Source of the DNA: Candidatus Krumholzibacteriia bacterium
Lineage (GTDB): Bacteria; Krumholzibacteriota; Krumholzibacteriia; JAJRXK01
Reading direction: 5' to 3'
Assembly (NCBI GenBank): GCA_035268685.1
Contig: DATFKK010000145.1
Coordinates: forward strand, 168-64,167
DNA length: 64,000 bases
Under the pieces are notes generated by a model. It did not search any database. It saw nothing but the letters and a program-made list of their open reading frames with translations, and was not told the DNA's origin. The position numbers were made by a program, and so were the translations under genes. Of the stretch, positions 11,087 to 64,000 are shown piece by piece (the first letter of the stretch is position 1; the number at the start of each line of letters is the position of its first letter).

Positions 11087-12872
11087 GCGCTCGCGTCAGT
11101 GGCGGGCACGTGCCCTGATGATGGCCGCGGCCGTGGGCTTCGGTGTCCTGGCCATCACCCTGTTCACCATGCAGGTCGTCCTGCACCAGGACTACGCCCA
11201 GCTCGCGCGCGAGAACCGGCAGTACAGTCGACGGGTCCTCGCCCCGCGCGGACTGATCAGCGACCGCTCCGGCGTCACCCTCGCGCACAACGTCTACCAG
11301 GCGCGGATCACCTACCCGCGGAACCGGGTTCGTGAGGACGACCCGGTGCTGGCGCGTCTGGTCGGTCTGCTGGAGCTCGACCGCGACGCTCTCCTCGAAT
11401 GGGTCGATCGGGCGCCGCCGGGAGATCGGATCACACTGGTGCGCCGCGCGACGCCTCGACAGATCGCGGTGGTCGAGGAACACCGCGTCGAGTTGCCGCA
11501 GGTGCAACTGCGGGTCGAACCGAGGCGGCACTACCGGAAGCACCCGCTCGCGAACCATCCGCTCGCGCCACACCTCGTGGGCTACGTCGGGGAGGTCCGA
11601 CGCGACGAAACGGGTCGCAACAGTCCCTATTCCGCCGGAGACATGATCGGGCGCACCGGCATCGAGGCCTTCGCGGAACCCCTGCTCCGTGGCGAGCACG
11701 GCCGGAAGGTGGTCGAGGTGAATGCCTCCGGGCACGTCGTCGGCGAGCTCCCCGGAGTCCACGTTCCGGTGGTTCCCGGCGGCCACGTGTACCTGACGAT
11801 CCACCACGCGTTGCAGAGTCGACTGGAGGAGCTGCTGCAGGACCGGGTCGGCGCCGGCGCCGTGGTCGAGATCGCCACGGGTGACGTGCTGGCGGCGGCC
11901 AGTGCGCCTTCGATCGACCTCAACGAGTTCACCGGAGGGATCAGCCACGAACGCGCGGCACAGCTGCGGTCGGATCCACGCAAGCCCGAGTTCAACCGGG
12001 TCTTCCGCGGAGTGTACCCGCCGGGCAGTCCCTTCAAGCTGATCACCGCGGCTGCCGCGCTCGAGCGCGGTCTGGTCGACCCCGAGGAGACCTTCGATCC
12101 CTGCTACGGCCGCTACCGTTTCGGCAACCGCTACTTCGGATGTTGGAAGGAGACAGGACACGGAGAACTCGACCTCGAGGGTGCGATCGTGCAGAGCTGC
12201 GACACGTACTTCTACCAGCTCGTACAGAGGCTCACCGTGGACCAGCTGGCCGAGACGGCGCGGCGGTTCGGCCTGGGCAACGACACGGGGTTGGAGTCCT
12301 TCCACGAACAGACGGGGCTGGTCCCCGACGCCGGTTTCTTCGACGCGCGGCACGGTCCGCGCGGGTGGACCGACGGAGTCAAGCTGAACCTCGCGATCGG
12401 GCAGGGGGAATTGCTGGTGACGCCGCTGCAGATGGCCCGGACCTTCGCGGCCATCGGAGGCGACGGGTACCTGTACCGTCCCCACGTGTTGCTGGTCACC
12501 GAGAACGCCTACGGCGTGCGCGACGCGCGCCACGTGTATCGCTCCACCCAGCCGGTGTGCTCGCCGCGGGTGCGTCGTTTCCTGCAGGAATCCATGCGCT
12601 CGGTCGTCCACGACGACCTGGGGACGGGAGGGCTCGCGCAGGTCGACGGATTCGAGGTCGCGGGCAAGACGGGAACTTCGGAGAACCCCTTCGGCGATCA
12701 TCACGCGTGGTTCGTCGCCTACGCGCCGGCGCGGAATCCGGAGGTCGCCGTCGCGGTGATCGTGGAGAACTCTGGTCACGGCGGTGAGGTCGCCGCTCCG
12801 ATCGTCGGAGAGGTCCTGCACGAGTACTTCGAACTCCAGGGCGCGGTGGCGTCCGACGGGGAGGCGCGCTGA
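11079..12872 (+). CDS. mrdA: Penicillin-binding protein 2 (elongasome transpeptidase)
   Basis: PBP dimerisation plus transpeptidase domains with the active-site motifs SPFK, SCD and KTGT. Confidence 0.95.
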   Translation: MDERSRQWRARALMMAAAVGFGVLAITLFTMQVVLHQDYAQLARENRQYSRRVLAPRGLISDRSGVTLAHNVYQARITYPRNRVREDDPVLARLVGLLELDRDALLEWVDRAPPGDRITLVRRATPRQIAVVEEHRVELPQVQLRVEPRRHYRKHPLANHPLAPHLVGYVGEVRRDETGRNSPYSAGDMIGRTGIEAFAEPLLRGEHGRKVVEVNASGHVVGELPGVHVPVVPGGHVYLTIHHALQSRLEELLQDRVGAGAVVEIATGDVLAAASAPSIDLNEFTGGISHERAAQLRSDPRKPEFNRVFRGVYPPGSPFKLITAAAALERGLVDPEETFDPCYGRYRFGNRYFGCWKETGHGELDLEGAIVQSCDTYFYQLVQRLTVDQLAETARRFGLGNDTGLESFHEQTGLVPDAGFFDARHGPRGWTDGVKLNLAIGQGELLVTPLQMARTFAAIGGDGYLYRPHVLLVTENAYGVRDARHVYRSTQPVCSPRVRRFLQESMRSVVHDDLGTGGLAQVDGFEVAGKTGTSENPFGDHHAWFVAYAPARNPEVAVAVIVENSGHGGEVAAPIVGEVLHEYFELQGAVASDGEAR

Positions 12873-18491: not shown

Positions 18492-18515
18492 GTCTCGAAC
18501 GCGCGAGAGCATCGT

Positions 18516-18600
18516 GCTCGGGTGGTGGAATTGGTAGACACGCTATCTTGAGGGGGTAGTGGCGAAAGCCGTGCGGGTTCAAATCCCGCCCCGAGCACCA
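18516..18600 (+). tRNA. tRNA-Leu (anticodon GAG)
   Basis: Cloverleaf: acceptor stem GCTCGGG/CCCGAGC, D-arm GTGGAATTGGTAGACAC, anticodon stem CTATC/GGTAG with loop TTGAGGG, long variable arm, T-arm GGGTTCAAATCCC, and an encoded CCA end. Confidence 0.9.
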
Positions 18601-18608
18601 CGAACGAT

Positions 18609-18640
18609 GACGGCCCGGATCGAACACGATCCGGGCCGTC
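18609..18640 (+). terminator. Perfect 14-bp stem hairpin (GACGGCCCGGATCG-aaca-CGATCCGGGCCGTC) just after tRNA-Leu
   Basis: Seen directly; no U-tract follows. Confidence 0.4.
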
Positions 18641-18731
18641 GCATTTCCCCCCACGTCGTGAACGCGGTGTGCATCGATCGCCCGACGCGGGCGAGACGGG
18701 GAAAATCAGTCCTCTTCGGGATTTTTTTTGT

Positions 18732-18760
18732 TTGACAGTCGTTGATGCGCTTCGAATAAT
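18732..18760 (+). promoter_or_regulatory. Strong sigma70-like promoter (TTGACA-N17-AATAAT) with upstream T-tract, driving the histone-like gene
   Basis: Near-consensus hexamers with 17-nt spacer. The preceding sequence GGGATTTTTTTTGTT is UP-element-like. Confidence 0.55.
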
Positions 18761-18850
18761 GCCGCCGGCTGAGCCGAGTGGAACGCCGATTGCTCCGCCG
18801 TGCGCGGATCCTTCGTGCGAATCCACGAAGCTCCCATCGCGGGCATCCGT

Positions 18851-18876
18851 GCCCACGATCCAAGGCTGCAAGACAA
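18851..18876 (+). repeat. Perfect tandem 13-bp direct repeat CAAGGCTGCAAGA x2 in the 5' UTR of the histone-like gene
   Basis: Seen directly. Ends about 15 nt before the RBS GAGG and ATG 18904. Confidence 0.8.
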
Positions 18877-18903
18877 GGCTGCAAGATAAAGCGAGGCTGA
18901 CGA

Positions 18904-19259
18904 TGGAAGACGGAATCATGCTGGCCGCGGCGAAGAAGAAGTCGACCGCGAAGAAGAAGAAGGCGACTGCCAAGAAGAAGAAGACGACGGCGCGCAAGAA
19001 GAAGACGGCCGCCCGGAAGAAGAAGACCACCGCCCGCAAGAAGAAGACGGCGGCGAAGAAGAAGAAGACCGCTGCCAAGCGGAAGAAGACCGCGGCGAAG
19101 AAGAAGAAGACGGCGGCGCGGAAGAAGAAGACCACTGCGCGCAAGAAGAAGACCACCGCGCGCAAGAAGAAGACCAGCGCCCGCAAGAAGAAGACGACGG
19201 CGCGCAAGAAGAAGACCACCGCCCGCAAGAAGAAGACCGCGGCGCGGAAGAAGCGTTAG
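18904..19259 (+). CDS. Histone H1-like basic repeat protein (Lys/Ala/Thr/Arg-rich nucleoid-associated protein)
   Basis: 118 aa: MEDGIMLAAA followed by about 13 copies of an 8-aa unit (AKKKKTTA/ARKKKTTA). Strong promoter and RBS upstream. Confidence 0.75.
18931..19256 (+). repeat. About 13.5 tandem copies of a 24-bp coding repeat (gcgcgcaagaagaagaccaccgcc-like)
   Basis: Seen directly. Produces the KKKT(T/A)A(R/K)K protein repeats. The antisense frame gives the artefactual ORF of VVFFLRA repeats. Confidence 0.9.
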
Positions 19260-19282
19260 ACCCCGGGTCGAGCGCCACGAAC

Positions 19283-19312
19283 ACGGGCGGCGAGGTCATC
19301 CTCGCCGCCCGT
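19283..19312. terminator. Bidirectional hairpin terminator between the convergent histone-like and outer-membrane protein genes
   Basis: GGGCGGCGAGG-tcat-CCTCGCCGCCC, 11-14 bp perfect stem, followed by GTTCGCGTTTCC. Confidence 0.55.
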
Positions 19313-19352
19313 TCGCGTTTCCGACTGGAGAGGAGCGGTGCTCCACGCGGCC

Positions 19353-20222
19353 TCAGCGCGAGGCCGTGGCAGCGTCCTCGTCCTCGAAGACCTCGTCCGG
19401 CACGTCGTAGCGCCAGGTGATGCCCGCCGTCACCGAGGGGAACAGCAGCGAGGCGTCGAGCGACACTTCGTCGGTCTCCCAGGTGTACAGACGCAGGTCC
19501 GCGGCGACGAAGCCTCGGACCGAACCGGCGATCGGGAATCCGTATCCGCCGCCCGCGGTGAAGAAGAGGGCGCCGACGTCATCGGTGTCGGAGAACTGGT
19601 TCAGGATGCCGCCGAAGCCGAGATGTACGAAGGGACGCCGCGGGTTCCGGCGCTCCCGGCCCAGGTGGTAGACCACCTTCCCGCCGCCCGCGAAGGTCGT
19701 CATCGTGGCGCGGTCGATCTCGGTGACCTCGTCGACGATCTCTTCCTCGATCACGCGCCGGCCGCGGAACACCGCGTCGGCTTGGCCGAACTCCCCGAAC
19801 AACTGCATGCCGAAGTTCTCGTTCAGGAAGAAGCTCACGCGACCGCCGACGACATAGCCCGTCTCGATCTTCTTCTCCGGCGCCTGGACGGGGGGGTCCG
19901 GAACCTCGCCGCTGAAATCCAGGATGTCGTCCCGGGCGGTGTCGTTGGTGAGTTCGGTCAGCGGGGCCGGCAGCGAGAGGTAGGTGTCGCCGGCCATCAT
20001 CCCCCCGTACAGCGACATCTCGATGCGATGCACACGCAGAAGGGGCTCTTCCTCCTCGTCTCCGCTCTGGGCCAGCGCGGGCTGGCCGCTCCAGACGAGG
20101 AGCAGGACGAGCAGCAGGCCTGCGCTCGCCGCTCGTGCCGACCGAAGGCCCTGCTCCCGGCGCAGGGGCCGTGGCGCCGACTCCGTCGTCGCCCGGATGC
20201 CGTCAAACAGAAGAGCGTCCAT
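19353..20222 (-). CDS. Outer-membrane beta-barrel protein (OmpA/OmpW-like barrel domain)
   Basis: Signal peptide (LLLVLLLVWSGQPALAQS) then alternating-hydrophobic beta-strand pattern with Gly/aromatic-rich turns. Start set at ATG 20220-20222. Confidence 0.6.
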   Translation of the reverse strand: MDALLFDGIRATTESAPRPLRREQGLRSARAASAGLLLVLLLVWSGQPALAQSGDEEEEPLLRVHRIEMSLYGGMMAGDTYLSLPAPLTELTNDTARDDILDFSGEVPDPPVQAPEKKIETGYVVGGRVSFFLNENFGMQLFGEFGQADAVFRGRRVIEEEIVDEVTEIDRATMTTFAGGGKVVYHLGRERRNPRRPFVHLGFGGILNQFSDTDDVGALFFTAGGGYGFPIAGSVRGFVAADLRLYTWETDEVSLDASLLFPSVTAGITWRYDVPDEVFEDEDAATASR

Positions 20223-32705: not shown

Positions 32706-32922
32706 GGGCGACGAGGACGCCAGTTGCGGCCCTTGTCGCCGTTTGCTACCGTTCTACGCTGTGCTCGAAACCGGAGGCGCCGGCTTCCGGGAACGCACTC
32801 GCAGGAGAAGCGCCGGCCCCGCGTGCCGGCGACCGCACGGAACCGGGCGCAGGCCCGGTTCTTCGTCCCGGCCCGGGGAGGCCGGGCGGGATCCCCGCAG
32901 AGAACGACGTCGGGAGAAGATC

Positions 32923-62947: not shown

Positions 62948-62976
62948 TTGACAGCGAGGGTCTCCGGAATTAGCGT
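62948..62976 (+). promoter_or_regulatory. Candidate rRNA operon promoter (TTGACA-N17-TAGCGT)
   Basis: About 300 nt upstream of the mature 16S 5' end; AT-rich stretch further upstream. Confidence 0.4.

Positions 62977-63252: not shown

Positions 63253-64000
<748 letters not shown>

Follow-up and report, generated by a model that had tools for sequence, protein, structure and literature searches.

Lysine-rich proteins resembling histone H1 are scattered over the bacteria and are poorly understood, recent work having shown that such tails bind DNA, RNA and polyphosphate. In eukaryotes, the tail of H1 and the protamines are disordered when free and helical when bound, and they condense DNA by means of charge. 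Among the bacterial proteins, Hc2 is built of Lys-rich pentamers, binds DNA and ranges from 165 to 237 amino acids (aa) through gain and loss of repeat elements between conserved flanks, while BpH1 ranges from 182 to 206 aa (PMC2848022). AlgP, with a net charge of +55, binds DNA through its KPAA domain and localises to polyphosphate granules, the spacing of which needs its Lys-rich tail (PMC9239181). The disordered KPAA tail of PhaF binds mRNAs just upstream of their Shine-Dalgarno site, activates translation and co-sediments with ribosomal subunits, and AlgP has been captured as a candidate RNA binder (PMC12818456). Here we analyse a small gene for a protein made almost wholly of lysine-rich repeats, found in a 64,000-nt stretch of a Candidatus Krumholzibacteriia bacterium (contig DATFKK010000145.1, positions 168 to 64,167; hereafter the window). 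The kind of protein is already known; less ordinary are the strongly conserved promoter and the ~135-nt leader that precede it. With somewhat more than even confidence, we read the locus as a monocistronic polycation unit (18722-19310) that has an H1- or protamine-like product and whose synthesis is controlled at both the promoter and the leader (Table 1).

Table 1. Features of the lysine-rich gene and its borders, in window coordinates
Feature	Position	Strand	Evidence and details
tRNA-Leu(GAG), upstream neighbour and left border of the slot	18516-18600	+	ARAGORN; Rfam tRNA 51.5 bits
14-bp G+C-rich hairpin behind the tRNA	18609-18640	+	fold of 18601-18660: -33 kcal/mol, z = -5.1 versus shuffles
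Putative promoter	18722-18760	+	T8 18722-18729; -35 TTGACA 18732-18737; 17-nt spacer; -10 AATAAT 18755-18760
Predicted 5' leader, ~135 nt	18767-18902	+	alignment, folds, covariance-model alignment and pair counts
Perfect 13-bp tandem, CAAGGCTGCAAGA x2	18861-18886	+	TRF 100% match; ends 6 nt 5' of GAGG
Invariant block AAGCGAGGC, holding Shine-Dalgarno GAGG (18893-18896), 6 nt 5' of the ATG	18889-18897	+	11/11 sequences
Lys-rich coding sequence	18903-19259	+	118 aa and stop; MEDGIML head, ~15.7 heptads, ARKKR tail
Tandem 21-bp (7-aa) array	18925-19253	+	TRF ~15.7 copies, 78% matches; autocorrelation; per-unit table
11-bp G+C-rich hairpin at the junction with the outer-membrane-protein-like gene	19285-19310	.	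folds of 19262-19330, z = -5.3 and -4.9 (two strands)
Convergent 289-aa outer-membrane beta-barrel-like protein, neighbour outside the element	19353-20222	-	36 homologues, some with weak PF13505 hits

A gene made of seven-residue repeats

The open reading frame at 18903-19259 on the + strand is a genuine gene for a lysine-rich, low-complexity protein of 118 aa, as an earlier note on this stretch had proposed from the letters of the DNA. Its product contains 51 Lys (43%), 25 Ala (21%), 21 Thr (18%) and 12 Arg (10%), with one Asp and one Glu as the acidic residues, and it has a net charge of +61, a mass of 13.3 kDa and a computed isoelectric point of about 12. The sequence opens with MEDGIMLAAAKKKST, continues in repeats and closes with TAARKKR. 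The repeats run from residue 9 to the end and include no proline, and the protein lacks a folded domain, its build being a minimal one of head, array and tail. All 51 Lys codons are AAG, and the G+C content of third codon positions (GC3) is 95% in the coding frame of the gene, a value seen in that frame only. AlphaFold2, run on the single sequence, returned a continuous helix over residues 2-117 (pLDDT 94.5, pTM 0.44), to which we give low weight as the model of a polycation without its partner.

The array had been described as octapeptides encoded by about 13.5 near-identical 24-bp units, and in this the earlier note was wrong. Autocorrelation reaches 0.82 at 21 bp versus 0.57 at 24 bp in the DNA, and 0.78 at 7 aa versus 0.39 at 8 aa in the protein, while TRF gives a period of 21 bp with 15.7 copies and 78% matches, plus a 63-bp super-period. 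The consensus of the 15 full heptads is A-(K/R)-K-K-K-T-(T/A). 'Near-identical' was likewise an overstatement: the units share ~80% identity, most of their differences lying at wobble positions, with G and C sharing unit positions 3, 6, 18 and 21 about 50/50 over the 15 units. This concentration of differences at third codon positions means that the peptide is under selection and that the units cannot be called near-identical.

A conserved slot in related genomes

A phmmer search of the protein against 5.8 billion proteins returned zero matches, the self-match included, because the composition correction of HMMER removes true relatives and even the protein itself, making the tool useless for this sequence. 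The lineage-specific neighbour resembling an outer-membrane protein (OMP) was therefore used to fetch related loci, which were found through 36 of its homologues (93-36% identity) and the contigs that carry them. A DNA-pattern scan of metagenomes yielded only eight stretches, among them a few additional genes of this kind and one chance hit (L107). The Pgk matches listed among GTDB species genomes led at best to FCB-wide loci with 50-57% identity, and were the source of one more distant locus, L042, described below. At 90% identity, the Pgk of the window clusters with HKK72256.1, an entry labelled Candidatus Krumholzibacteria bacterium by NCBI.

Wherever a contig extends far enough, the corresponding slot holds a small gene for a Lys-rich protein, in the order secG, tRNA-Leu, the gene and the convergent OMP-like gene, the last always tail to tail with it; the tRNA-Leu arrangement is found also in L088, L093, L095, L097, L099 and L042. 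Eleven further distinct genes occupy the slot, encoding proteins of 76-139 aa in which K+R make up 48-58% and the net charge is +37 to +79. MEDGI starts all of them and ARKKR ends most. Most have a 7-aa repeat unit; that of L112 is 6 aa long (TGAKKK), L093 and L095 have one of 8 aa, and L097 has a 7+8 compound. The L091/L105 protein (111 aa) and that of L102 (76 aa) differ by exactly five units, with the 150 nt upstream and the 80 nt downstream identical, which reflects either a strain-level change of copy number or an assembly collapse. The spread of length and unit size among the relatives indicates that change of copy number is real on evolutionary time, in agreement with the variability that the earlier note had anticipated.

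The exact protein of the window is encoded on nine metagenome contigs. In six fetched contigs (JGI, ENA), positions 18500-19350 are identical base for base, with 0-11 mismatches over 5-20 kb, and some of the six may be re-assemblies from shared reads. The identity across the six argues against a one-off assembly error.

The closest relative, L087 (OMP-like neighbour 93% identical), has its EF-G and SecG genes split and its Lys-rich stop read through, giving a 164-aa call. As L087 resembles a long-read assembly with indel errors, its array, shorter by one unit, is to be treated cautiously. Short-read contigs stopping inside the array include those of L108, L109 and L110, at their ends, and also L100, L103 and L042.

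The last of these, from the metagenome-assembled genome 'bacterium isolate Ust_3' (42% G+C, Pgk 55% identical), has pgk, secG and tRNA-Leu(GAG) followed by a 17-mer, TTTTTTTTGTTTGACAG, identical to that of the window (locus at 11589-12099, + strand). Its leader holds UUGC and AGGCUG, and its protein, MAAAKKKAAKKKVAKKK(VVKKK)n, has a 5-aa unit and runs off the end of the contig. Given this locus, the family may reach much further than the MEDGI clade. No such Lys-rich gene was present, however, at eleven other FCB-wide loci in which tRNA-Leu follows the pgk cluster.

A putative strong promoter and a conserved leader

The promoter-like site in front of the gene scores 11/12 against the sigma-70 consensus and is the sole 11/12 match on both strands of the 64-kb window, where the runners-up score 10/12. 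Its T tract, its TTGACA and the A..T of its -10 box are invariant across 11 aligned sequences. The earlier note was right to call this the best promoter in the window, and the site is conserved in all relatives. Just 5' of the T tract stands a semi-conserved GTCC...GGAT element (18709-18722), possibly a small hairpin, which is present in the window, L087, L088 and L089, while L093 and L112 keep the GGTCC half alone; the element may act as an operator, or else as a weak terminator with a U tail that serves at the same time as the upstream promoter element.

G+C-rich hairpins lie on both sides of the gene. The one behind the tRNA is probably the terminator of the secG/tRNA-Leu transcript, and the one downstream is probably a bidirectional terminator between the convergent genes; with these flanking hairpins and a promoter of its own, the Lys-rich gene would form a self-contained unit. 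The downstream hairpin, GGGCGGCGAGGTCATCCTCGCCGCCC, recurs just past the Lys-rich stop of L093 with one loop base different. This conservation is unusually high for a terminator, the adjoining OMP-like protein being only 55% identical between the window and L093.

With transcription taken to start ~7 nt past the -10 box, the leader would be ~135 nt long, close to the figure of roughly 140 nt given previously. Three blocks, AGGCUGCA, AAGCGAGGC and AUGGAAGACGGAAUCA, are invariant in the 11 aligned promoter/leader regions, and they sit in otherwise unalignable intergenic DNA beside an OMP-like protein that is only 45-67% identical. The second occurs once in the window, and the third reaches into codons 2-5, where none of four synonymous sites has ever changed. 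The first 16 nt of the coding sequence, ATGGAAGACGGAATCA (codons 1-5, the rare codons GAA and GGA included), are invariant in all relatives; codons 2-5 (GAA GAC GGA ATC) show zero synonymous change in 11 sequences, whereas C-terminal codons do vary. A motif search found the invariant blocks nowhere else in the 64-kb window, and the blocks showed neither pairing with the first (5') 725 nt of 16S rRNA nor an antisense copy elsewhere in the window. The GGA of GGAAC, AUGGAA and ACGGAA was considered as marking candidate CsrA-type sites. A conserved upstream open reading frame was rejected, none being conserved in the leader.

The leader falls into a structured 5' part (18767-18859) and a relatively open 3' part. 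In the window, GGcuGAGC (18767-18774) forms a helix with GCUCCC (18830-18835), hairpins are placed at 18794-18808, 18811-18830 and 18836-18859, and the conserved GGAAC..UUGC, one more invariant block of the alignment, lies at 18780-18793. The outer helix begins 8 nt after the -10 box, at the predicted 5' end, and its sequence is clade-specific, with a partner 40-60 nt downstream (GGUGAGC/GCUCACC, GAUUGCCC/GGGCGAUC and UUUUCGAC/GUCGAAAA in different clades). In an ungapped shuffle test this helix gave p values of 0.002-0.1 in five leaders, and in each of the 10 leaders tested the variable part from UUGC to AGGCUGCA has a better fold than its dinucleotide shuffles (z -0.85 to -3.3). A covariance model was built from four leaders and then used to align ten: 90% of cells pair, versus 33-44% with slid partners, and both sides change in 12 of 31 pairs; 0 of 500 shuffles came up to the observed value. 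These counts are from an alignment that is fitted to the structure, covers only ~6-8 independent lineages and is crude for the most distant clade. RNAalifold found almost nothing when given all leaders as aligned by MAFFT, owing to misalignment of the variable stems, and per-clade runs found few compensatory pairs. A hairpin stands directly 5' of AGGCUGCA in 9 of 10 leaders but also in 27-61% of shuffles, so that its position alone proves little.

The last 80 nt of the leader show, if there is any difference, less structure than their shuffles (z = +1.0), and the ribosome-binding region has a predicted unpaired probability of 0.53-0.63, versus 0.24-0.45 upstream. A riboswitch-like sequestration of the Shine-Dalgarno sequence is unsupported, since the ribosome-binding region is predicted to be open. 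A search of 18761-18902 against Rfam 15 (E up to 10) left the + strand without a match, and the leaders of five relatives, searched at E up to 5, matched no family either. Folding of the 5' untranslated region (UTR), which the earlier note had suggested as a check, gave, together with the comparison of leaders, covarying 5' stems and a ribosome-binding region predicted to be accessible. Our reading of these models is that 5'-terminal stems are followed by an open, purine-rich and probably sequence-specific ribosome-binding region, and that the leader is a candidate new RNA element with moderate comparative evidence.

Proposed function and alternatives

The composition and build of the protein, near to those of Hc2/BpH1 and of the AlgP/PhaF tails, lead us to read it as a stand-alone polyanion-coating protein. 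The segment 18722-19310 would then be a monocistronic and probably highly expressed unit, with terminator, promoter, leader, coding sequence and terminator in succession, and its product a polycation standing by itself, of the bacterial type that resembles histone H1 or protamines. By virtue of its charge the protein would coat polyanions and neutralise them, chromosomal DNA before all others, DNA being on the analogy of known proteins the most likely ligand; its free form would probably be disordered and its bound form helical. The array evolves through the addition or removal of entire units and through shifts of unit length (5 to 8 aa), and comparison of the relatives shows that selection maintains the frame, the density of charge and, in most of them, the two ends. 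Control would act at two conserved levels, of which the first would be the near-consensus sigma-70 promoter with its upstream T tract and the second the ~135-nt leader, with covarying stems in its 5' two-thirds and, in its 3' third, a purine-rich and weakly structured ribosome-binding region composed of AGGCUGCA, AAGCGAGGC and AUGGAAGACGGAAUCA. The invariant blocks may be a specific recognition site for some factor, and the 13-bp tandem within this region is a recent duplication of the first block, confined to the window population. The unusual conservation of promoter and leader points to tight dosage control.

Several points weigh against this picture. DNA binding is proposed from charge, searches with Pfam, NCBIfam and HMMER having returned nothing, and transcription, its start site and the abundance of the protein are inferred. 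Similar Lys-rich tails bind RNA (PhaF) or are located on polyphosphate granules (AlgP), so that the ligand may be other than DNA. The whole leader is no stabler than shuffles (z = +0.16), the outer helix, when tested without gaps, reaches significance in some sequences only and not in the bulged leaders, and the pair counts come from the structure-fitted alignment and its few lineages. Finally, the copy-number differences between near-identical contigs could be due to assembly collapse.

A more specific proposal, which we put forward tentatively and hold to be well short of an even chance, is that the leader is an undescribed cis-regulatory RNA, with covarying stems and AGGCUGCA/AAGCGAGGC/AUGGAAGACGGAAUCA, that sets the level of an abundant polycationic protein, one of chromatin or one that coats RNA, in Krumholzibacteria-like bacteria. 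If so, control would run through feedback by the Lys-rich protein or through a dedicated RNA or protein factor, and the 13-nt duplication would be a natural regulatory variant in the window population.

Somewhat less likely again is that the protein is mainly an RNA- or ribosome-binding factor rather than a chromatin protein, whether it activates translation, chaperones RNA or regulates itself by binding its own leader near the Shine-Dalgarno sequence. The PhaF tail offers a precedent in its binding of mRNA upstream of the Shine-Dalgarno site (PMC12818456), the invariant single-stranded blocks over and just 5' of the gene's own ribosome-binding site would suit feedback, and the neighbours secG, tRNA-Leu and an EF-G paralogue belong to housekeeping and translation. 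The repeats, however, have neither the KPAA motif nor proline, and four charges per seven residues would bind any nucleic acid, which does not imply specificity for the leader. The invariant blocks, moreover, are confined to one site in the 64-kb window and so give no sign of a regulon.

We consider it unlikely that the 13-bp tandem is functional in itself, its two copies altering translation or the binding of a factor. The perfect tandem that had been reported near the ribosome-binding site is there as described, and it consists of a duplicated AGGCUGCA block, with copies of that block at 18863-18870 and 18876-18883. It doubles a conserved element 6 nt 5' of the Shine-Dalgarno sequence and is fixed in all seven contigs of the window population, both of which would suit a function. 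All ten other leaders, that of the closest relative L087 among them, are nevertheless single-copy, so that the tandem is a recent duplication private to the window population. The suggestion that it is a control site does not stand as far as conservation goes, for the conserved part is AGGCUGCA within the much larger leader, which the earlier note had missed and which as a whole is the regulatory candidate. The second copy, besides, retains the native spacing to the Shine-Dalgarno block, so that the duplication may be neutral.

Still less weight is due to the idea of an AlgP-like organiser of polyphosphate granules or other polyanion inclusions, which would provide counter-ions and spacing when cells are starved or stressed by salt. 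The net charge of AlgP (+55), its localisation to granules and the dependence of their spacing on its tail (PMC9239181) can be set beside the +61 of the window protein, and reports place Krumholzibacteriota in hypersaline lakes and mats; but the called neighbours include no ppk, ppx or other polyphosphate genes, and the folded N-terminal domain of AlgP is absent from the window protein.

That there is no protein gene here at all, and that a non-coding AAG-rich satellite or an assembly artefact was left open by chance, is very improbable and largely refuted already: low-complexity repeats do yield open frames on several strands, arrays are often the break points of short-read contigs and one contig pair differs by an exact five units, but the ATG context and MEDGI are kept, with ARKKR and the stop in most relatives, the frame survives every length change in 12 genes in total (which rules out a non-coding satellite), the 95% GC3 is restricted to the Lys-rich frame, differences between units are mostly synonymous, promoter, Shine-Dalgarno sequence and terminator are all conserved, and six further contigs have the same sequence.

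Neighbouring features

The convergent OMP-like gene is lineage-specific and its product has a signal-peptide-like start; one of its homologues is labelled as coming from a Gemmatimonadetes bacterium. At the edge of the window, a bacterial 16S rRNA gene is represented at 63254-64000 (+) by its first 725 model positions, and TTGACA boxes near 62948 and 63078, upstream of it, could be rRNA promoters, with which the promoter of the Lys-rich gene may be compared. A 95-nt tRNA-Ala(CGC) called by ARAGORN at 32785-32879 (+) is probably false, the Rfam tRNA model being silent there at E up to 1.

Comparison with known systems

In hmmscan, the window protein and 10 relatives gave no match to Hc1 (PF07432) or HC2 (PF07382) at E up to 10, a negative that is weakened by the HMMER composition correction, under which even the self-match is lost. 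Pfam Linker_histone gave no match either, and a globular winged-helix domain was not found in the protein. NCBIfam assigned 0 families to the window protein and only noise at E > 3 to the relatives, and a sequence search of the PDB returned only designed Lys/Ala heptad coiled coils, a similarity of composition. The bacterial histone-H1-like Lys-rich class is, however, defined by composition and not by homology, and the protein has its high Lys(+Arg)/Ala content, low complexity and strongly basic character, together with short tandem units whose number varies among relatives. Judged on its sequence, it is a compositional analogue of Hc1/Hc2 and not a demonstrable family member. The likeness to Hc1, BpH1 and AlgP drawn by the earlier note is accordingly sound for composition and for tandem build (Hc2, BpH1 and AlgP's C-terminal domain), and does not extend to a link by hidden Markov model (HMM).

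The family is of interest as a minimal case, with only repeats between its head of 7 residues and the tail of 5 that most members have, in an uncultured lineage of the FCB group. Its units vary naturally in length (5 to 8 aa) and in copy number, and could serve as a model for how charge density and repeat number tune the binding of polyanions, and also for the regulation of a protein that would be toxic in excess. There is a consequence for annotation as well, in that HMM pipelines miss the whole family and short-read assemblies often break within the array; with contigs stopping repeatedly at this point, metagenome assemblies systematically truncate the family or lose it.

Of the described proteins, Hc2 (hctB) and BpH1 are alike in that nearly the whole protein is an array of short Lys/Arg-Ala-Thr units and in that length is polymorphic by gain and loss of repeats between conserved flanks. 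Hc2 has pentamers with two basic residues, set in 36-aa elements, and a conserved non-repetitive C-terminal part of 69 aa (PMC2848022), whereas the window protein has heptads (6-8 aa in relatives) with four basic residues and a tail of 5 aa, and belongs to another phylum. AlgP and PhaF share the Lys/Ala-rich tandem repeats, the composition of an H1 tail and a repeat number that varies by species or strain, and both are polyanion binders (DNA, RNA, polyphosphate granules); their tails, however, are proline-rich 4-mers (KPAA) borne on folded N-terminal domains, and the window protein has neither the domain nor the proline. The likeness to the eukaryotic H1 tail and to protamines, with ~40% Lys accompanied by Ala and Thr, is compositional only, and the protein differs from eukaryotic H1 in lacking both homology and the globular winged-helix domain.

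For the leader, the nearest parallels are of another kind. The cspA 5' UTR, the leaders of ribosomal-protein genes and the control of hctA by the small RNA IhtA are examples that concern the leaders of abundant nucleic-acid-binding proteins. The leader described here differs from those of the cspA type in matching no Rfam family in sequence or structure, and by analogy it resembles them in its strong promoter with an A/T tract, its long conserved 5' UTR and the conservation that reaches into the first codons.

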